DNA from: Escherichia coli
GTDB taxonomy: Bacteria > Pseudomonadota > Gammaproteobacteria > Enterobacterales > Enterobacteriaceae
Length of the DNA stretch: 64,000 bases
Assembly (NCBI RefSeq): GCF_024223415.1
Contig: NZ_CP100502.1
Direction: 5' to 3' (one strand)
A program made the position numbers and the translations under genes. This document shows positions 11,200 through 25,735 of this stretch, one piece after another (the first letter of the stretch is position 1; each line of letters starts with the position of its first letter). The notes under the pieces were generated by a model. It made no database searches and had not been told where the DNA came from. It saw nothing but the letters and a program-made list of their open reading frames with translations.

Positions 11200-11905
11200 G
11201 CCCGCGCGAAAACCCCTGGCAGGCTGACGCCTGCCGGAAGGGAAGCGGGCCACGCTGGCGCGTCGCCCGTTACCCTTCCCGTCTGTGATGTGTCTGACTC
11301 AGGAGTGTTTCTTTCTTATGTTATGGAACTGTTCCTGATGTTGTTGTTCCTTTATCTGCTGCTCTGATTCTGACTACTGCAGTGTTGTTCTGTCTGCCGG
11401 GCGCACCTTCGGCTCCCGGCTGCCTGGCGGCATCCGGTCGTCAGGCCCGACTCCGACAGGCAGCTGCTGGCGCACCCGCCAGTCTCCGCCGAACCCGCTG
11501 GCGCGGTTTCGGGCTGTCGCTACGGTCCGATGCGTGAAAACCCGGGCTTGCAGCGACCGTTCCGGTCGCGCCGCCTCTGTCGCGCCGTGACCTGCGCTCC
11601 CTGCACACCTGACGGTGTGTGAGGAAACTGCGCCTGATGGCGCAGCAGTCCTCCCTCCTGCCGCCACCTCTGCGGCCTGTTTCCCGCTGTGGACTTTCCG
11701 GGGGGCAGACGTAACCCCCTCCCGTTCCATCTGTCCAGGGTGAGATGCACCGGCCACAAAATTTTTAGCCATGAACCCGGCAAAAAATTTTGCGTCCGCC
11801 CCCGGACAGCTGTCCCGTGAGGCGGTAAACGGGCCCCCATCGGAAAGGTCCACTGCGGGGAGAAACCCCTGTGAAGTGGACGGCAGGAGGAGCTTTCGCT
11901 CCTCT
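11200..11905 (+). repeat. Family-B ssi/Frpo-like repeat, copy B1
   Basis: seq: long GC-rich repeat shared with 17600..18250 and partly with 20815..21140 (e.g. 'caccttcggctcccggctgcctggcggcatccggtcgtcaggcccgactccgacaggcag'); ends about 70 nt before ssb. Confidence 0.55.
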
Positions 11906-11973: not shown

Positions 11974-12501
11974 ATGAGTGCACGTGGTATCAACAAGGTC
12001 ATCCTCGTCGGGCGTCTGGGCAATGATCCGGAGGTCCGTTACATCCCCAACGGTGGCGCAGTGGCAAACCTGCAGGTGGCCACGTCAGAAAGCTGGCGCG
12101 ACAAACAGACGGGGGAGATGCGGGAGCAGACGGAATGGCACCGTGTTGTGCTGTTCGGCAAGCTCGCGGAAGTGGCAGGTGAATATCTGCGCAAGGGCGC
12201 GCAGGTCTACATCGAGGGGCAACTCCGTACCCGTAGCTGGGACGACAACGGCATCACCCGCTACATCACTGAAATTCTTGTTAAGACCACGGGCACCATG
12301 CAGATGCTGGGGAGTGCACCACAGCAGAACGCTCAGGCGCAACCGAAGCCTCAGCAGAATGGGCAGCCACAGAGTGCTGACGCGACGAAAAAAGGTGGCG
12401 CGAAAACGAAAGGCCGTGGACGTAAGGCCGCGCAGCCCGAGCCTCAGCCGCAAACGCCGGAGGGGGAGGATTACGGGTTTTCAGACGACATCCCGTTCTG
12501 A
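11974..12501 (+). CDS. ssb: Plasmid single-stranded DNA-binding protein
   Basis: seq: '[48 protein letters not shown]...' is the canonical SSB OB-fold, with Gln/Pro-rich tail ending 'DIPF'; AGGAGG RBS. Confidence 0.95.
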
Positions 12502-17599: not shown

Positions 17600-18250
17600 C
17601 CTGCCAGGCCGCCGGAAAACCCTGGCAGGCTTACGCCTGCCTGAAATGCAGGAGGGCCGCGCCTGCGGCGCTGCCCTTCCTGCCCGTCATGGTGTGAGGC
17701 ATTTTTCTGTTATGTCGTTTCTGTTGTTCTGATTTCCGGAGGCGGGGACACCTTCGGCTCCCGGCTGCCTGGCGGCATCCGGTCGTCAGGCCCGACTCCG
17801 ACAGGCAGCTGCTGGCGCACCCGCCAGTCTCCGCCGAACCCGCTGGCGCGGTTTCGGGCTGCCGCTACGGTCCGATGTCTGAAAAACCAGGCTTGCAGCG
17901 ACCGTTCCGGTCGCGCCGCCCCTGTCGCGCCGGAAACGGCGCTCCCTGCACACCTTACGGTGTGTAAGGCAACTGCGCCTGATGGCGCAGTCAACCCTTC
18001 CGCCGCCACCCCTGCGGCCTGTTTCCCGCTGTGGACTTTCCGGGGGCTGGAGTAACCACATCCCGTTTCAGCAGTCCAGGGGAAGATATACCGTCCACAA
18101 AATTTTTAGCCATAAACCCGGCAAAAAATTTTGCGTCCGCCCCCGGACAGCTGCCCCGTGACGTGGTGACGGACGCCCCATCGGAAAGGTCCACTGCGGG
18201 GAGAAACCCCGAAGAAGTGGACGGCAGAAGGGGCTTTCGCCCCTCCGGGG
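17600..18250 (+). repeat. Family-B ssi/Frpo-like repeat, copy B2
   Basis: seq: aligns along its length with 11200..11905; starts right after the ardA stop. Confidence 0.55.
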
Positions 18251-18824: not shown

Positions 18825-19091
18825 GTGAGACCATCAATTATCTTCGCAACCGCCGAGTATGTAAAGCGTCTGCGTGAAGAGTGCCTGCGGGAGAATAAAC
18901 CCCTGCACCGCCATACCCGCTTCAGACGTCAGGAGCTGGCACAGGATGAGATTAACCCGGACGTCCTGGCGATGAGCGGCCATATCGCCAGACGCTGCAG
19001 TGAGCAGAAGCGGGTGCGTATCCCCGCTATGAAAGTCAGCGAATGGGGCCACCTGCTCCGCGCGCTTGAAATTGAGCGGGTCTGCCACTGA
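18825..19091 (+). CDS. Hypothetical small basic protein
   Basis: seq: 88 aa, GTG start with AAGGAG RBS. Confidence 0.4.
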   Translation: MRPSIIFATAEYVKRLREECLRENKPLHRHTRFRRQELAQDEINPDVLAMSGHIARRCSEQKRVRIPAMKVSEWGHLLRALEIERVCH

Positions 19092-19155
19092 TTAACCCTT
19101 GCCGTCTGCCTGTGCAGGCGGCAGGATACGTTCAGACATCTCACCAGGAGGAACC

Positions 19156-20097
19156 GTGAGTAAGAAGAAAAACACCACAACGCCCACGCCGCATGATGCC
19201 GCGTTCCGGTCGTTCCTGGCGAATCCCGACGTCGCCAGAGATTTTCTGGAACTGCATCTTCCTGCGGAGTACCGGCAGTTGTGCGACCTGTCCACGCTGA
19301 AGCTGGAACCCGCCACCTTTGTTGAGCCGGACCTGCATCAGTACGCCAGCGATATCCTCTGGAGCGTGAAAACCACCGGGGGTGAAGATGGTTATGTTTA
19401 TACGCTCATCGAGCACCAGAGCACCGAAAATCTGTACATGCCTTTTCGCATGTTACGCTACAGTGTGGCGGCGATGCAGAGACATCTGGAGCAGCACAAA
19501 ACGTTGCCACTGGTCATTCCGGTGCTGTTCTATCACGGTGAGCGCAGCCCGTACCCGTACAGCATGAACTGGCTGGACTGTTTTGAGAATCCGGCGCTTG
19601 CGGCTAAAATATACACAAAGCCGTTTCCGCTGGTTGATATCACTGTCGTTGATGACAATGAAATCATGAACCATCGCCGGATGGCCGCACTGACGCTGCT
19701 GATGAAGCATATCCGTCAGCGGGATATGCTGATGTGTCTGGACAACCTGGTCAGAGCACTGCAGGACATCCAGGATGAAGAGCAGATTACAGTTCTTTTC
19801 AACTATCTGCTTAATGGCAGCGAACATGTAACGGTTGAATTTTTGCAGACGCTGGCGCAGCGACTGCCGCAGCACGAGGACAGCATTATGACACTGGCAG
19901 AACGTCTTAAGCAGGAAGGTATCCAGCAAGGTATCCAGCAGGGTATCCAGCAGGGTATCCAGCAGGGAGTTCAGCAGGGGGCGCTTCAAAAAGCACGGGA
20001 AATCGCCCGGGAGCTCCGGAACGCGGGAATGCCGGCAGCACAAATCTGTCAGCTGACCGGACTTTCTGAAGCTGAACTGAAGAACATCACTCACTGA
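19156..20097 (+). CDS. rpn: Rpn-family (YhgA-like, PD-(D/E)XK) recombination-promoting nuclease
   Basis: seq: GTG 19156 with CAGGAGG RBS (track from 19099); N-terminal 'HDAAFRSFLANPDVARDFLELHLP...YASDILWSV...YTLIEHQSTE' matches the YhgA/Rpn family from memory. Confidence 0.75.
   Translation: MSKKKNTTTPTPHDAAFRSFLANPDVARDFLELHLPAEYRQLCDLSTLKLEPATFVEPDLHQYASDILWSVKTTGGEDGYVYTLIEHQSTENLYMPFRMLRYSVAAMQRHLEQHKTLPLVIPVLFYHGERSPYPYSMNWLDCFENPALAAKIYTKPFPLVDITVVDDNEIMNHRRMAALTLLMKHIRQRDMLMCLDNLVRALQDIQDEEQITVLFNYLLNGSEHVTVEFLQTLAQRLPQHEDSIMTLAERLKQEGIQQGIQQGIQQGIQQGVQQGALQKAREIARELRNAGMPAAQICQLTGLSEAELKNITH
19888..20097 (+). CDS. Candidate intragenic small protein (RpnS-like), in frame with the rpn C-terminus
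   Basis: seq: internal ATG 19888 preceded by GAGGA at 8 nt spacing; would encode 'MTLAERLKQEG(IQQG)n...ALQKAREIARELRNAG...'. infer: by analogy with Rpn/RpnS intragenic pairs. Confidence 0.3.
   Translation: MTLAERLKQEGIQQGIQQGIQQGIQQGVQQGALQKAREIARELRNAGMPAAQICQLTGLSEAELKNITH
19919..19978 (+). repeat. Five tandem 12-bp repeats (ggtatccagcag) encoding (GIQQ)n within rpn
   Basis: seq: ggtatccagcaa, ggtatccagcag x3, ggagttcagcag in tandem. Confidence 0.9.
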
Positions 20098-20109
20098 TGA
20101 GAGCCAAAA

Positions 20110-20134
20110 GGCCCGGCAAAATGCCGGGCCTTTT
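20110..20134 (+). terminator. Rho-independent terminator after rpn
   Basis: seq: perfect 9-bp stem 'ggcccggca'/'tgccgggcc', 3-nt loop, then TTTT. Confidence 0.7.
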
Positions 20135-20158
20135 GCCAGCAGGAGCAGAGAAAACAGT

Positions 20159-20329
20159 ATGACGATTGCAGAACGTCTTATACAGAAAGGTTTTGAAAAA
20201 GGTGCTCTTGAAGTGGCGCGGGAAATAGCCTGCCGGCTTCGGGATATGGGCTGGACGCCGGAACGGATTCAGGAGGCCACGGGACTTTCCGGTGAAGAAC
20301 TGAAAAAACTGTTTCCTGATGAGCAGTAG
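20159..20329 (+). CDS. Free-standing small protein resembling the Rpn C-terminal tail (RpnS-like)
   Basis: seq: 56 aa 'MTIAERLIQKGFEKGALEVAREIACRLRDMGWTPERIQEATGLSGEELKKLFPDEQ' aligns with the rpn tail 'MTLAERLKQEG...GALQKAREIARELRNAGMPAAQICQLTGLSEAELKNITH'; AGGAG upstream; below the track's 60-aa cutoff. Confidence 0.5.
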   Translation: MTIAERLIQKGFEKGALEVAREIACRLRDMGWTPERIQEATGLSGEELKKLFPDEQ

Positions 20330-20359
20330 CCTGGCATTCTGCCAGGCTGTGAACCACGC

Positions 20360-20611
20360 TCACACATCCTCTGCCGTTTCCCCCAGTTCATTTTCCAGAC
20401 GCCTGATGATATCTGCCTTGCGCATCCCCTGCATGTGAGGCAGCAGGTCACGGACTGAAAGTGCCTGGGTGGTCCTCCAGACGGTGACATCCACCTGTTC
20501 CGCATTTTCCCAGGCGTGCCATGTTCTCTGTGTCACGCCAAATTCTCTGGCCGCTTTTTCGCGTGACCAGAGCATGCTTTTTCGCCAGATTCGCAGTTCC
20601 CAGCCGGTCAT
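20360..20611 (-). CDS. Small helix-turn-helix regulator
   Basis: seq: 83 aa; 'REKAAREFGVTQRTWHAWEN' looks like an HTH; one of only two minus-strand genes in the leading region. Confidence 0.5.
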   Translation of the reverse strand: MTGWELRIWRKSMLWSREKAAREFGVTQRTWHAWENAEQVDVTVWRTTQALSVRDLLPHMQGMRKADIIRRLENELGETAEDV

Positions 20612-20625
20612 AAAACACCTTTGAA

Positions 20626-20712
20626 AAAGTGAAAAAACTTCACTTTATTTTATCACCATAACCACCAAATCAGCGCGAAAAATAAGTGTGAAAAAGTGAA
20701 GGAATTTCACTT
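20626..20712. promoter_or_regulatory. Two palindromic operator-like sites AAGTGAA-N5-TTCACTT upstream of the HTH gene
   Basis: seq: palindromes at 20627..20645 and 20694..20712. Confidence 0.4.
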
Positions 20713-20814
20713 TTTTTGATTGTAGGTGTCGTGCTGTTTTCTCTGTTTTCACCTGTGCGGGAGTGGTGTGCCAGTGACCACCACATGCCATTGTTGCGCC
20801 GTCGTTTTTCTTCA

Positions 20815-21140
20815 GTCGCGCCGGATGCGGCGCTCCCTGCACACCTTACGGTGTGTAAGGCCACTGCGCCTGATGGCGCAGCTGTCTCTGCCTGTCTGCC
20901 GCCGCACTGCGGCCTGTTCTCCGCAGATGGACTTTCCGGGGGTACATACACGACCACATCCCGTTTCAGTCGTCCAGGGGAGAGATGTACCAGCCACAAA
21001 ACTTTTTGCCGCAGGCGTCAAAAACTTTTGCGTCTGCCCCCGGACAACTGCCCCGTGACGTGGTGAGCGTCCCCCGTCGGAAAGGTCCACTGCGGGGAAA
21101 TCCCCGAAGACCCGGACGGCAGAAGGAGCTTCGCTCCTCC
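20815..21140 (+). repeat. Family-B ssi/Frpo-like repeat, copy B3 (5'-truncated)
   Basis: seq: matches the 3' two-thirds of B1/B2 from 'ggcgctccctgcacaccttacggtgtgtaagg' onward. Confidence 0.5.
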
Positions 21141-21187
21141 GGGAAATGACCTGGCTGACCCGGCAGTCGTGACGATGAGGAGACAAT

Positions 21188-22039
21188 GTGATGAATCAGA
21201 CTTTACCCACTGCTGACCTGAATACTGCCGGCACGACAGATGTTATTCCGTCTGTGGCCATCGACCGCATCATCGCGCAGCGTAACGAAGGTATTGCACT
21301 GTTCATGCAGGCGATGGAATGCCTGGCGACAGCGCGCAGGATTCTGCTTGATGCGTCAGGTGATATTTTTCTTTACGGTTTTGAAGACTGCGTGACCGAC
21401 TCCGTTCGGTGCATGGATAAACCGGAAGAAGCGAAAAGGAATATCACCCGTCTTGCCGACCGGAAAATCTGGGACCGCCTGATGACGGATACGGGGATGT
21501 ACACCTTCATGAGTTCATGTCAGCGTGATGAGTGGAACAGCCAGCTGATGAGCGACACCTGTCCTGAAATCACCCTGGACAATGTACTGGCAACTTTTCG
21601 CCATCTGAATGCCAGTAAGATGCAGACATTTGAACAGGGACTGATTGATGTCTACCGGAAATTGTCATGGGATTACAGAACCAATAATCCCTGCCGTCTG
21701 GGCAAGAGAATCATTATTGAAAACCTGCTGTACCGCTGGAGTAACGGGCGTGTTACGCTGGACTGCAGCGGACGGGAGGCACTGGATGACCTGGTACGTC
21801 CGTTTTATCTGCTGGAGGGGCGCAACGTTCCTGACTTCCGGAGCAGCATCGGGGCGCAGTACGGTGAATTTATCGGGAACGGCGACAATGTCGGTAAGCT
21901 GTTAGAAGGGGAATATTTTACGGTGCGTGGCTACCAGAAAGGGACCGTACACATTGTCTTTAAGCGTCCTGACCTTGTTGAAAAACTGAATGATATTATT
22001 GCACGGCATTATCCTGGTTCATTGCCGCCACGAGTCTGA
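21188..22039 (+). CDS. Hypothetical protein, oriT-proximal leading-region gene
   Basis: seq: 283 aa with GAGGAG RBS, directly after copy B3. Confidence 0.5.
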   Translation: MMNQTLPTADLNTAGTTDVIPSVAIDRIIAQRNEGIALFMQAMECLATARRILLDASGDIFLYGFEDCVTDSVRCMDKPEEAKRNITRLADRKIWDRLMTDTGMYTFMSSCQRDEWNSQLMSDTCPEITLDNVLATFRHLNASKMQTFEQGLIDVYRKLSWDYRTNNPCRLGKRIIIENLLYRWSNGRVTLDCSGREALDDLVRPFYLLEGRNVPDFRSSIGAQYGEFIGNGDNVGKLLEGEYFTVRGYQKGTVHIVFKRPDLVEKLNDIIARHYPGSLPPRV

Positions 22040-22050
22040 TTAAACAGAAA

Positions 22051-22080
22051 AGCCCTGGTATTTATGCCGGGGCTTTTTTT
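22051..22080 (+). terminator. Rho-independent terminator
   Basis: seq: 'agccc...gggct' stem followed by a T7 run just after the 21188..22039 stop. Confidence 0.5.
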
Positions 22081-22123
22081 CTGTAATCATCATAATATCA
22101 GAACATGATGTGACATTGTCACA

Positions 22124-22459
22124 TCAATTGTTGTTCATATCGATGCCATCTTTCCTGGCTGAATCTGTCTTTTTAGATGCTGTTTTAGAGGAAGAACGGC
22201 GGGATGGCTTTTTCGATTCTGCTTCCCGAATAATGTCACGAAGTGCCTTCTCTCCTACTTCATACCCTGCATTTTTGAGCGTATCACGAACATCTGCCAG
22301 TGTATAACCCTTTGTCCTTACCAGAACAATAATGTCATCACGAATGGCATCAAGAAAATCACGCAATGTTTTCCGTTGAGCGGTGAGATCTGGCAATTCC
22401 GATAAAGCAGCTTTTGCCAGCTGGATGTCATCATCTGAGTAAAATTTTTTAGAAGCCAT
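22124..22459 (-). CDS. Hypothetical protein with Lys/Ser/Arg-rich C-terminal tail
   Basis: seq: ATG 22459 with GGAGAG upstream (track GTG 22465); tail 'KKPSRRSSSKTASKKTDSARK' is histone-like; transcribed divergently from nikA. Confidence 0.4.
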   Translation of the reverse strand: MASKKFYSDDDIQLAKAALSELPDLTAQRKTLRDFLDAIRDDIIVLVRTKGYTLADVRDTLKNAGYEVGEKALRDIIREAESKKPSRRSSSKTASKKTDSARKDGIDMNNN

Positions 22460-22586
22460 TGGCACTTTCTCTCCGTTTCATGTTGAAGTCTGATTTTATC
22501 ATCAAAAACTGACTCCTGGCAGGGCTGCGCCCTGCCTCTGCCGTCTGCATAAGACTATGATGCACAAAAATAACAGGCTATAATGG

Positions 22587-22648
22587 CCTGAAAAACGGGA
22601 CAGGATGTGCAATTGTAATACCGTCACACGCGACGCTATTACAATTGC
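22587..22648 (-). other. oriT: Origin of transfer (oriT) core with 17-bp inverted repeat and nic region
   Basis: seq: minus-strand 'ggtattacaattgcacatcctgtcccgtttttcagg' with arms 22609..22625 and 22632..22648. known: from memory the R64 nic lies in 'CATCCTG|TCCCG'; position upstream of nikA fits. Confidence 0.6.
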
Positions 22649-22692
22649 CATCTGGTCAGGGCTTCGCCCCGACACCCCGTAAGGAGCCTGAA

Positions 22693-23025
22693 GTGAGTGA
22701 TAGTGCGGTAAGAAAGAAAAGTGAGGTACGGCAAAAGACAGTTGTCAGGACACTCAGATTCTCTCCTGTTGAGGATGAAACCATCAGGAAAAAAGCTGAA
22801 GATTCCGGACTTACTGTATCTGCTTACATCCGAAATGCAGCACTGAATAAGCGAATTAACTCCCGTACAGATGATGCTTTTCTGAAGGAGTTAATGAGAC
22901 TGGGAAGGATGCAGAAGCATCTGTTTGTTCAGGGAAAAAGAACCGGTGACAAGGAATACGCAGAAGTGCTTGTTGCCATAACCGAACTTACAAATACATT
23001 GCGTAAACAGTTAATGGAAGGTTGA
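22693..23025 (+). CDS. nikA: Relaxosome accessory protein NikA
   Basis: seq: GTG 22693 with AAGGAG RBS gives 110 aa 'MSDSAVRKKSEVRQKTVVRTLRFSPVEDETIRKKAEDSGLTVSAYIRNAAL', matching R64 NikA in size and sequence from memory. Confidence 0.85.
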   Translation: MSDSAVRKKSEVRQKTVVRTLRFSPVEDETIRKKAEDSGLTVSAYIRNAALNKRINSRTDDAFLKELMRLGRMQKHLFVQGKRTGDKEYAEVLVAITELTNTLRKQLMEG

Positions 23026-23035
23026 GGATTCTCCG

Positions 23036-25735
23036 GTGAATGCAGTCATTCCGAAAAAGAGAAGGGACGGCAAGTCTTCGTTCGAAGACCTGGTATCCTA
23101 CGTCTCTGTCCGGGATGACATGACCGATGAGGAACTGGATTTATCTTCTTCTTCGCAGGCTGAACAACCGCACCGAAGCCGTTTCAGTCGCCTTGTTGAT
23201 TATGCGACACGTCTTCGAAATGAGTCATTCGTGGCGCTGGTTGATGTCATGAAGGACGGCTGCGAATGGGTCAACTTTTATGGTGTCACCTGCTTTCATA
23301 ACTGTACTTCTCTTGAAACTGCCGCTGCAGATATGGAGTACATTGCCCGGCAGGCACACTATGCAAAAGATGACACTGATCCTGTTTTTCACTACATCCT
23401 TTCCTGGCAGTCACATGAAAGCCCGCGTCCGGAACAGATTTATGACAGTGTACGTCATACGCTGAAATCACTCGGCCTTGCCGACCATCAGTATGTCTCT
23501 GCCGTGCATACTGATACAGATAATCTGCACGTCCATGTGGCTGTTAACCGGGTACACCCTGAAACGGGTTATCTGAACCGGTTATCCTGGAGTCAGGAAA
23601 AACTCAGTCGTGCCTGCCGTGAGCTTGAACTGAAGCATGGTTTTGCTCCGGATAACGGTTGCTGGGTCCATGCACCGGGAAATCGTATCGTTCGCAAAAC
23701 CGCCGTTGAACGTGATCGCCAGAACGCGTGGACACGCGGGAAAAAACAAACTTTTCGCGAGTATGTCGCGCAGACAGCGGTCGCTGGTTTACGCAGTGAA
23801 CCTGTAAATGACTGGTTATCCCTGCATCGTCGTCTTGCGGAAGATGGTCTGTACCTGTCTCAGATGGACGGAAAATTTCTGGTGATGGATGGCTGGGATC
23901 GCAACAGGGAAGGTGTACAGCTTGACTCGTTTGGTCCCTCCTGGTGTGCAGAAAAACTCATGAAAAAAATGGGTGACTACACGCCAGTACCAAAAGACAT
24001 TTTCAGCCAGGTGGAAGCACCAGGACGCTATAATCCGGACTTCATTGCCGCTGATGTTCGCCCGGAAAAAATCGCTGAAACAGAAAGTCTGCAGCAGTAT
24101 GCCTGTCGTCATCTTGGAGAACGTCTGCCGGAAATGGCACGGGAAGGACGGCTGGAAAACTGCCAGGCTATTCACCGCACACTGGCTGAAGCGGGATTAT
24201 GGATGCGTGTTCAGCATGGTCACCTGGTTATCTGTGACGGTTATGATCATAACCAGACTCCCGTTCGTGCTGACAGCGTATGGTCGCTGCTGACGCTCGA
24301 CAATGTGAATCAACTCGATGGTGGCTGGCAGCCTGTACCAACAGATATTTTCCGCCAGGTTACGCCAACAGAACGCTTCCGTGGTCGTCGTATGGAGAGC
24401 TGTCCTGCGACCGATAAAGAATGGCACCGTATGCGTACAGGCACGGGGCCGCAGGGGGCTATCAAACGCGAACTGTTTTCTGACAAAGAAAGTCTGTGGG
24501 GATACAGCATCAGCCATTGTAGCCCTCAGATTGAAGAAATGATCACACAGGGTGAGTTTACCTGGCAGCGTTGTCATGAGCTGTTTGCACAACAGGGACT
24601 GATGCTACAGAAACAACATCACGGGCTTGTTGTCGTTGATGCCTTTAATCATGAGCAAACGCCGGTGAAGGCCAGCAGCATTCATCCTGATCTGACACTG
24701 GGGCGTGCAGAGCCACAGGCCGGACCTTTTGTGAGTGCCCCAGCAGATTTGTTTGACAGGGTGCAACCTGAAAGTCGCTATAACCCGGAGCTGGCTGTCA
24801 GTGACAGGTACGGGGTCAGCAGTAAACGTGACCCAATGCTGCGCCGGCAGCGACGTGAAGCCAGAGCTGAGGCCCGTGCTGACCTGCGTGCCCGCTATCT
24901 GGCATGGCGTGAACAATGGCGTAAACCAGATCTGCGTTATGGGGAACGTTGTCGGGAAATTCATCAGGCATGCCGTCTGCGGAAGTCACACATTCGTGCG
25001 CAGTACGATGATCCGGCATTACGTAAGCTGCATTATCACATTGCAGAAGTTCAGCGAATGCAGGCATTGATCAGGCTGAAAGAAGACATCAGGGATGAGC
25101 GACAGAAACTTATTGCTGATGGGAAATGGTATCCACCCTCTTACCGTCAGTGGGTCGAAATTCAGGCTGCTCAGGGAGACAGGGCTGCTGTATCGCAGCT
25201 GAGAGGCTGGGATTATCGCGATCGCCGTAAAGACAGGTCACGCACAACGACGACAGACCGCTGTGTCGTGCTTTGTGAACCGGGCGGAACGCCGGTATAC
25301 GGTAATACCGGTGATCTCGAGGCCCGTCTGCAGAAGAACGGGAGTGTTCGTTTCCGTGACCGTCGGACGGGAGAGTTTGTCTGTACGGATTATGGTGACA
25401 GGGTTGTTTTCCGTAATCACCATGACCGCAATGCGCTGGCAGATAAACTGGATTTGATTGCACCGGTATTATTCGGGCGTGATCCACGCATGGGTTTTGA
25501 ACCAGAAGGAAACGACAAACAATTTAACCAGGTCTTTGCTGAAATGGTTGCCTGGCATAATGTGACAGGCCGTACCGGTCACGAAGACTACAGGATTACG
25601 CGACCGGACGTGGATCATCACCGTGAAGGAAGTGAACGCTACTACCGCGATTATATCGCGGCGAACAGCAACAATGACGCATCACTGCCTCCGCCGGAGC
25701 AGGATAAACGCTGGGAACCGCCTTCTCCAGGTTAA
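23036..25735 (+). CDS. nikB: Relaxase NikB
   Basis: seq: 899 aa right after nikA; His-rich motif 'HTDTDNLHVHVAVNRVHP'; size matches R64 NikB. Confidence 0.9.
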   Translation: MNAVIPKKRRDGKSSFEDLVSYVSVRDDMTDEELDLSSSSQAEQPHRSRFSRLVDYATRLRNESFVALVDVMKDGCEWVNFYGVTCFHNCTSLETAAADMEYIARQAHYAKDDTDPVFHYILSWQSHESPRPEQIYDSVRHTLKSLGLADHQYVSAVHTDTDNLHVHVAVNRVHPETGYLNRLSWSQEKLSRACRELELKHGFAPDNGCWVHAPGNRIVRKTAVERDRQNAWTRGKKQTFREYVAQTAVAGLRSEPVNDWLSLHRRLAEDGLYLSQMDGKFLVMDGWDRNREGVQLDSFGPSWCAEKLMKKMGDYTPVPKDIFSQVEAPGRYNPDFIAADVRPEKIAETESLQQYACRHLGERLPEMAREGRLENCQAIHRTLAEAGLWMRVQHGHLVICDGYDHNQTPVRADSVWSLLTLDNVNQLDGGWQPVPTDIFRQVTPTERFRGRRMESCPATDKEWHRMRTGTGPQGAIKRELFSDKESLWGYSISHCSPQIEEMITQGEFTWQRCHELFAQQGLMLQKQHHGLVVVDAFNHEQTPVKASSIHPDLTLGRAEPQAGPFVSAPADLFDRVQPESRYNPELAVSDRYGVSSKRDPMLRRQRREARAEARADLRARYLAWREQWRKPDLRYGERCREIHQACRLRKSHIRAQYDDPALRKLHYHIAEVQRMQALIRLKEDIRDERQKLIADGKWYPPSYRQWVEIQAAQGDRAAVSQLRGWDYRDRRKDRSRTTTTDRCVVLCEPGGTPVYGNTGDLEARLQKNGSVRFRDRRTGEFVCTDYGDRVVFRNHHDRNALADKLDLIAPVLFGRDPRMGFEPEGNDKQFNQVFAEMVAWHNVTGRTGHEDYRITRPDVDHHREGSERYYRDYIAANSNNDASLPPPEQDKRWEPPSPG

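Follow-up and report, generated by a model that had tools for sequence, protein, structure and literature searches.

YgeA, a helix-turn-helix protein of the IncI1 leading region, and two predicted operators in its own promoter

The plasmid leading region analysed here contains a real and conserved gene, ygeA, whose small product is very probably a repressor of the XRE type that would bind two palindromic operators in its own promoter and so hold down its own expression once that promoter has become double-stranded. The operator sites are conserved, occur nowhere else on the plasmid and vary in step with the recognition helix of the protein, and the position and orientation of the gene are conserved as well; binding by YgeA, repression, dimerisation and the start of transcription are what we infer from these data. 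A preliminary description of this DNA had suggested a repressor, made only after duplex formation, that either shuts down early leading-region expression or is autoregulated alongside it. It is the second, more modest part that appears to hold, with the operators in the promoter of ygeA itself and their sequence following that of the helix.

Leading regions are the first-expressed part of conjugative plasmids and are rich in anti-defence functions, and attention has so far gone to the genes that are read from the incoming strand. ygeA is among the commonest leading-region families, and one of the few families that lie systematically on the other strand. In Samuel et al. (Nature 2024, Supplementary Table 1), leading-region family 22 has 2333 members, a median position of 2 from oriT, orientation -1 and the name 'HTH transcriptional regulator', and stands two rows from the DUF4942/YgfB family, which is at position 1 with orientation +1; families oriented like family 22 cannot be transcribed from the transferred strand (T-strand). 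By size, position and orientation, family 22 is probably ygeA. It is given there without operator, mechanism or function, and in the literature we found no paper on the operator, regulation or function of ygeA.

Plasmid context and strand of transfer

The window (the whole stretch of 64,000 nucleotides that was analysed) belongs to an IncI1-type conjugative plasmid. Its segment from 19000 to 22700 is 100% identical to NZ_CP027535.1 and to several other records, and at least 80% of this segment is carried by 1895 PLSDB plasmids. The nikA and nikB genes lie at 22693-25735, and the leading-region genes ssb, psiB, psiA and ardA are on the plus strand at coordinates lower than those of nikAB. The minus strand carries the motif ATCCTG at 22605-22600, which we take to be a nick region of the RP4/R64 type. 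Since this motif is on the minus strand, the minus strand should be the T-strand, and it is also the sense strand of ygeA; entering towards lower coordinates, it would then serve as template for the leading genes of the plus strand. Minus-strand transfer agrees with the published maps of IncI1 pESBL (PMC12672017). The main features of the region are the following.

20360-20611, minus: ygeA, encoding an 83-aa XRE/Aca2-like helix-turn-helix protein (open reading frame, Pfam, AF2 model, hhalign, dN/dS)
20616-20622, minus: Shine-Dalgarno sequence AAAGGTG, 4 nt before the ygeA ATG (sequence; invariant between the window and a pESI-type relative, dS ~1)
20626-20646, no strand: O1, the predicted proximal operator, AAAGTGAA-N5-TTCACTTT, directly next to the -10 and overlapping the predicted transcription start (about 20640)
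20647-20655, minus: predicted extended -10, TGATAAAAT (sequence; equivalent hexamer kept in homologues)
20656-20690, no strand: inter-operator spacer, free in sequence and kept in length (alignment of the window with the pESI-type relative)
20691-20715, no strand: O2, the predicted distal operator, AAAAAGTGAA-N5-TTCACTTTTT, with its centre 67 bp from that of O1 and at about -62 from the predicted start
20812-21185, plus: B3, a class-1 (Frpo/ssi-type) ssDNA promoter element that drives the 283-aa gene and is divergent from ygeA (repeat homology, T-strand fold)
21188-22039, plus: first leading-region gene, encoding a 283-aa DUF4942 protein of the YgfB/YdiA family (Pfam DUF4942, E 4e-51; PHROG DNA-methyltransferase-like, E 1e-18)
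22600-22605, minus: oriT nick-region motif ATCCTG, after a 17-bp inverted repeat (sequence)

The preliminary description had counted ygeA as one of only two minus-strand genes in the leading region. This is correct from oriT as far as a DUF1281-family gene about 16 kb away (at about 6209 of the window, a position converted from reference-record coordinates), where the annotated minus-strand genes are ygeA, a 113-aa ORF and a 65-aa ORF that we set aside as spurious; beyond about 6209, umuDC/dinI-like genes are also on the minus strand. The 65-aa ORF (20645-20842, minus), a 'hypothetical protein' in RefSeq (WP_001412266.1), runs through O2 and ends in O1, and is probably not a gene because the ORF annotated in the corresponding position of locus L004 does not resemble it. 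The 113-aa gene (22124-22465, minus) adjoins oriT, and all related MOBP plasmids have a homologue of it (31-59% identity) at the same position and in the same orientation. The gene is labelled 'MobC' in some records, gives no convincing match in Pfam or NCBIfam, and may encode a relaxosome accessory or regulatory protein; like ygeA, it requires duplex DNA.

The ygeA gene and its product

That the 83-aa minus-strand reading frame is a genuine helix-turn-helix regulator gene, as first described, is borne out by the ORF itself, by purifying selection, by a five-helix AF2 model and by matches of both profile and fold. All YgeA homologues begin with MTG[WYF]EL, which indicates that the ATG start codon is correctly placed, and relatives down to 31% identity have in common the N-terminus MTG[WYF]EL-W-R and 13 invariant positions. 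The Pfam similarities lie under the respective cut-offs, with E 7e-5 and 23.5 bits for HTH_31 (cut-off 27 bits) and E 0.007 and 16.8 bits for HTH_3 (cut-off 23). The AF2 model is a five-helix bundle with a pLDDT of 85, the recognition helix corresponds to approximately residues 28-35 (TQRTWHAW), and the protein probably acts as a dimer. Purifying selection on the gene is strong, with dN/dS between 0.06 and 0.29 in 14 pairwise comparisons within sub-lineages. At least 1000 contigs encode the exact protein, which is annotated as 'HTH transcriptional regulator' or 'putative ygeA'.

ygeA is monocistronic, both in the window and at the homologous loci, and its next neighbours are convergent. Between it and a convergent 56-aa ORF lies a GC-rich hairpin that has no T-run (20331-20349), and a weak terminator-like plus-strand hairpin lies inside ygeA (20561-20577); plus-strand transcription running on from the upstream leading operon could be stopped at either of them. 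Within 19099-20329 (plus), the convergent Rpn-family (YhgA-like) nuclease gene contains four tandem 12-nt units, GGTATCCAGCAG, at about 19918-19965, which encode QQGI four times over. The separate 56-aa ORF 3' of the Rpn gene (20159-20329) is homologous to the last ~50 Rpn residues (TIGR01784 positions 225-273, E 3e-7) and recalls the small intragenic Rpn antitoxins; the extra copy is also present in the pESI-type relative.

The promoter and its palindromes

Two perfect palindromes, AAGTGAA-N5-TTCACTT, had been reported 16 and 83 nt upstream of the ygeA start, and both their sequence and their positions (20627-20645 and 20694-20712) are exact. Their arms are longer than the 7 bp first given, with 8 bp in the proximal palindrome (20626-33 and 20639-46) and 10 bp in the distal one (20691-700 and 20706-715), and both lie inside a 42-nt direct repeat with a period of 67 bp. 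With up to two mismatches allowed, the palindrome has two matches in the 64 kb against 0.18 expected, and two or more matches appeared in one of 100 shuffles.

Transcription of ygeA is predicted to start at about 20640, some 7 nt downstream of the extended -10, where the promoter-proximal arm of O1 has its 3' end. This operator would then cover approximately -6 to +15, where a bound protein would block RNA polymerase, and the centre of O2 would lie near -62. No good -35 is present for this promoter. A scan for consensus sigma-70 promoters from 20000 to 21300 gave zero matches, including none towards the 283-aa gene, and the ygeA promoter was missed as well because its -35 is weak. We also considered an RNA hairpin in the ygeA 5' UTR of the kind known for Aca2, and the geometry is against it: with the predicted start inside O1, the 5' UTR would not contain a complete promoter-proximal arm, which makes such a hairpin unlikely.

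Comparative analysis of the operators

Comparative footprinting and the covariation of helix and operator argue strongly that the palindromes are YgeA's own operators. The comparison was made over 38 homologous loci taken from PLSDB and from a set with one genome for each species, with YgeA homologues 30-99% identical (five more plasmid regions were added later). Of the 38, 28 carry the sequence AAGTG-N9-CACTT, with no more than one mismatch, no farther than 110 nt from the start, against a chance expectation that we estimate at about 0.003 per locus. In most of these 28 loci the proximal site begins 31-35 nt upstream of the ATG, immediately after a -10-like hexamer such as TAAAAT, TAGAAT, TATAAT or CATAAT. 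A distal site is present in 16 of the 38 at a spacing of either 55-57 or 64-67 bp, values about one helical turn apart, and is absent or displaced in the others. The ten homologues in which the motif is missing mostly have a different genomic setting, for example the IncL/M operon form. The pESI-type relative, with a protein 85-86% identical to that of the window and saturated synonymous sites (dS about 1.0), has kept both operators, TGATAAAAT, the Shine-Dalgarno sequence and the 67-bp spacing; the 36 nt between the operators are scrambled.

Positions 6 and 7 of the operator covary with residues 32-33 of the recognition helix. Helix WHAW is found with operator AAGTG[A/T]A (3 loci), helix [WY]K[AVSDT]Y with AAGTGCA (30 loci) and helix YKRY with AAGTGNC (4 loci), which would be consistent with direct readout in which Lys or Arg pairs with the complementary-strand G. 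It is the sequence AAGTG/CACTT, and not pairing alone, that is invariant, and the changes track the recognition helix.

In Buttiauxella plasmids (L020-L022 and L025), the 150 nt upstream of the HTH gene contain three operator-like sites in a 55-56-bp register, and the two distal ones share a conserved C, where A would be expected, within one arm (GCCCTT). A cassette of a RelE/HigB-like toxin and an HTH antitoxin, with 19-bp-arm palindromes of its own (L013 5157-5990; also L017 and L033), is inserted between the distal and the proximal YgeA operators in plasmids of Yersinia ruckeri, Rahnella and Enterobacter.

Conserved orientation and proposed mechanism

Relaxase and leading-region markers were detected in the homologous loci by tblastn. 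In all of the marker-bearing loci (about 18), ygeA is opposite in strand to nikAB, psiA, psiB, ssb, ardA, DUF4942 and an 88-aa gene, and on the same strand as the homologue of the oriT-adjacent 113-aa gene. NikB in these loci is about 30-45% identical in the distant lineages and up to 100% identical in others, and the distance of 2-4 kb between ygeA and oriT is kept even in the lineages with the lowest NikB identity. The gene is always divergent from the oriT-proximal leading operon, the first gene of which varies (DUF4942, DUF932, DUF1419 and others). The DNA between the two is often GC-rich and strongly structured on the T-strand, with an upstream fold of z < -3 in 16 of 39 loci against 4 of 39 controls, a comparison that is indicative only, being based on 12 shuffles and a fixed 350-nt frame.

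The earlier reasoning that ygeA cannot be read from the incoming strand stands up well, as the T-strand is the minus, sense strand and the antisense orientation is conserved in all of the homologous leading regions examined. The ygeA promoter becomes double-stranded only after complementary-strand synthesis, because the transferred strand is the sense strand, and the conserved place and antisense orientation suggest that expression from duplex DNA only is a conserved design feature rather than an accident of the window plasmid.

In the mechanism we propose, YgeA, with a DNA-binding domain homologous to that of Aca2, would bind two sites with the core AAGTGNA-N5-TNCACTT. YgeA bound at O1, 1 nt after the extended -10, would keep RNA polymerase off the promoter, so that the protein regulates its own gene negatively. 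O2, 67 bp upstream, would be an accessory site, most likely for cooperativity or looping, and could also serve as an upstream activator site for a promoter that has no -35. With the promoter existing only after complementary-strand synthesis, a short burst of ygeA expression would be followed by self-repression to a low steady level. This combination of autoregulation and duplex gating is plausible, and as an account of YgeA it is incomplete, because a protein that purely regulates itself has no evident benefit.

The neighbouring ssDNA promoter and alternative roles

The classes of ssDNA promoter have been described (PMC12672017). B3 is 80-82% identical to 17924-18249 and to 11576-11904, making three class-1 copies, and its T-strand fold has an energy of -135.7 kcal/mol (z -8.4) with the main hairpin at 20886-21185. 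The palindromes had been placed just before B3, which is right as to order and approximate as to distance: the homology between copies begins at 20812, 97 nt past O2, and the hairpin is about 170 nt from O2. The search for the same palindrome in the rest of the plasmid, proposed with the preliminary description, covered the window and the remaining 37 kb of NZ_CP027535.1 (a 101-kb plasmid) with up to four mismatches and spacers of 3-7. Both sites are unique there: the complete plasmid has no other operator with fewer than 3 mismatches in 14, the matches with 3 of 14 lie within genes, and no operator is found at the other two class-1 ssDNA promoters (11576-11904 and 17924-18249). A second, distantly related plasmid, complete at 124 kb, has sites only at its two ygeA-promoter positions.

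In plasmids of Pluralibacter (L018), Serratia fonticola (pSF002) and Edwardsiella (L047), a Frpo-like repeat unit of about 490 nt reaches the -10 and stops within a few nt of the operator end. Orphan copies, consisting of a Frpo-like element, a -10 and a YgeA-type operator, occur at L018 10850-11055, CP013915.1 38150-38642 and L047 5065-5557. They have no HTH gene downstream and lie upstream of an antirestriction or ParB-like/DGQHR gene, and two of the three plasmids have a perfect operator in this copy, with a single mismatch in the remaining one.

The shut-off switch of the preliminary description, with YgeA made from duplex DNA and repressing the B3-driven 283-aa gene or ssDNA-promoter operons generally, seems to us very unlikely. 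The constant divergence of ygeA from the oriT-proximal operon, with a GC-rich and strongly folding element between, would fit it, as would the presence of the operator beside a second Frpo-like copy in a few plasmids, and repressor-based transient expression of establishment genes is known elsewhere, for Reg576 and the proposed ArdK/ArdR (PMC6294495). However, neither of the two complete plasmids has an operator at its other ssDNA promoters or anywhere else, O2 is well separated from the repeat edge and the hairpin by the distances given above, many relatives have no O2 at all, and the 283-aa gene has no facing duplex promoter. Nor would a repressor be needed: ssDNA promoters fall silent by themselves on duplex conversion, and their induction lasts longer if conversion is delayed (PMC12672017, with RNA-seq showing the decay as the DNA becomes duplex). 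With operators at the promoter of ygeA only, the idea that YgeA shuts down early leading-region expression is unsupported. The conserved adjacency of the promoter-operator module and the structured element could also mean that the module works together with the adjacent ssDNA promoter element, which we hold to be quite unlikely; the module might then act as a duplex-stage insulator or as an antisense promoter firing against leading-region transcription, or its divergent transcription, at a level set by YgeA, could affect supercoiling and the extrusion of a hairpin from the Frpo-like repeat. The repeat unit that spans to the -10 and operator in L018, pSF002 and L047, with its second copy free of an HTH gene, speaks for such coupling, as do the Yersinia, Rahnella and Enterobacter plasmids, where the distal operator has stayed beside the structured element despite the toxin-antitoxin insertion. 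Against it, all the orphan copies represent one orthologous locus and so may be a neutral duplication, one of them is already mismatched, and the IncI1 window has no orphan copy. Unlikely, too, is a wider reading in which the module is an appendage of the oriT-proximal ssDNA promoter, or YgeA has targets on the host chromosome or on co-resident elements. As an appendage the module would be active once the stretch is duplex, and antisense or divergent transcription, or a roadblock or loop formed by YgeA, would control the state of the Frpo-like element, by insulation, silencing or hairpin extrusion, with the orphan copies serving the second such element.

Two further readings concern the protein and the palindromes separately. 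Weak HTH similarities to MqsA and HipB, and the tail-to-tail position of ygeA with the Rpn gene and the small Rpn C-terminal ORF in IncI1 and pESI-type plasmids, could point to an orphan or partner antitoxin-type regulator (HipB/HigA/MqsA-like) of a toxin module, for example with the neighbouring Rpn nuclease; but no gene is co-transcribed with ygeA in any locus, and the Rpn gene is convergent, is not in an operon with ygeA and is missing from most homologous loci, so that we give this reading almost no weight. It is just as extremely improbable that the palindromes are something other than YgeA sites and instead serve as T-strand structural hairpins or terminators, or bind a host factor such as CRP. 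Both do fold as small hairpins in the T-strand prediction, and GTGA...TCAC resembles CRP half-sites. A CRP site is TGTGA-N6-TCACA, though, and the spacing GTGA-N7-TCAC does not fit it; most relatives carry GTGCA, neither hairpin is followed by a T-run, and it is the sequence itself that is conserved, with changes that follow the recognition helix of YgeA.

Comparison with known regulators

The closest solved relative of YgeA is Aca2, the anti-CRISPR-associated autorepressor of phage ZF40 and its relatives (PDB 7ezy, 7vjo-q, 7b5j). The N-terminal HTH regions of the two are homologous (hhalign 96%, 41% identity over 44 columns; PDB profile E 1.3e-4), and Aca2 provides the top four Foldseek matches of YgeA, with an alignment of 72-76 columns of a protein of about 120 residues. 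Aca2 has been proven experimentally to be an autorepressor that binds two inverted repeats in its own promoter (PMC6765145); YgeA likewise has two promoter inverted repeats, one near or after the start site, in a region of a mobile element that is rich in anti-defence genes. Unlike Aca2, with its approximately 120 aa, YgeA has 83 aa and no C-terminal dimerisation domain, and sequence alignments between them cover the N-terminal 44-60 residues only. Pfam DUF1870, the Aca2 signature, gave no match in YgeA at E up to 0.1. ygeA also differs in being monocistronic and not downstream of an acr gene, and its operator is AAGTG-N9-CACTT (AAGTGNA-N5-TNCACTT), whereas that of Aca2 is TTCG-N6/8-CGAA (PMC6765145). 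By analogy, YgeA would work as an autorepressor of the Aca, Cro or C type, and we do not file it as a member of Aca2.

Like Reg576 of p576 and the proposed ArdK/ArdR of pKM101, YgeA is a plasmid-encoded repressor candidate that lies among establishment genes and is absent from the naive recipient. These regulators have operators, known or proposed, at several establishment promoters in duplex DNA (PMC6294495), whereas the YgeA sites are at its own promoter only, and the neighbours of ygeA use ssDNA promoters, unlike the targets of Reg576 and ArdK/ArdR. With Cro/CI-type proteins and the controller (C) proteins of restriction-modification systems YgeA has in common a small, apparently autoregulated XRE HTH, two palindromic sites and a weak -35, and the distal site could activate while the proximal one represses. 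The C-boxes, however, are adjacent, within about 35 bp, and the YgeA sites are 56-67 bp apart (67 bp in the window); ygeA has no linked restriction gene, its divergent gene differs between lineages, and the Foldseek matches to C proteins are weak. ygeA is a new and abundant member of a familiar kind, the autoregulated XRE repressors. Should YgeA regulate itself only, the gain would be one of routine annotation. Its operator, promoter and specificity code nevertheless offer a handle for EMSA, reporter and ChIP work and a motif for finding further targets, and the ygeA promoter would be a natural marker of when the DNA becomes duplex in recipients.

Other features of the window

A search of positions 1-30000 with Rfam at the gathering threshold gave no matches. 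From its start to 12013, the window has about 2.6 kb extra relative to NZ_CP027535.1, and the coordinate offsets between the two differ on either side of 12013. Exactly at window position 12012/12013, between an ssi3-like element and ssb, NZ_CP027535.1, which is nearly identical in other respects, carries a group II intron (ltrA) that the window does not have.
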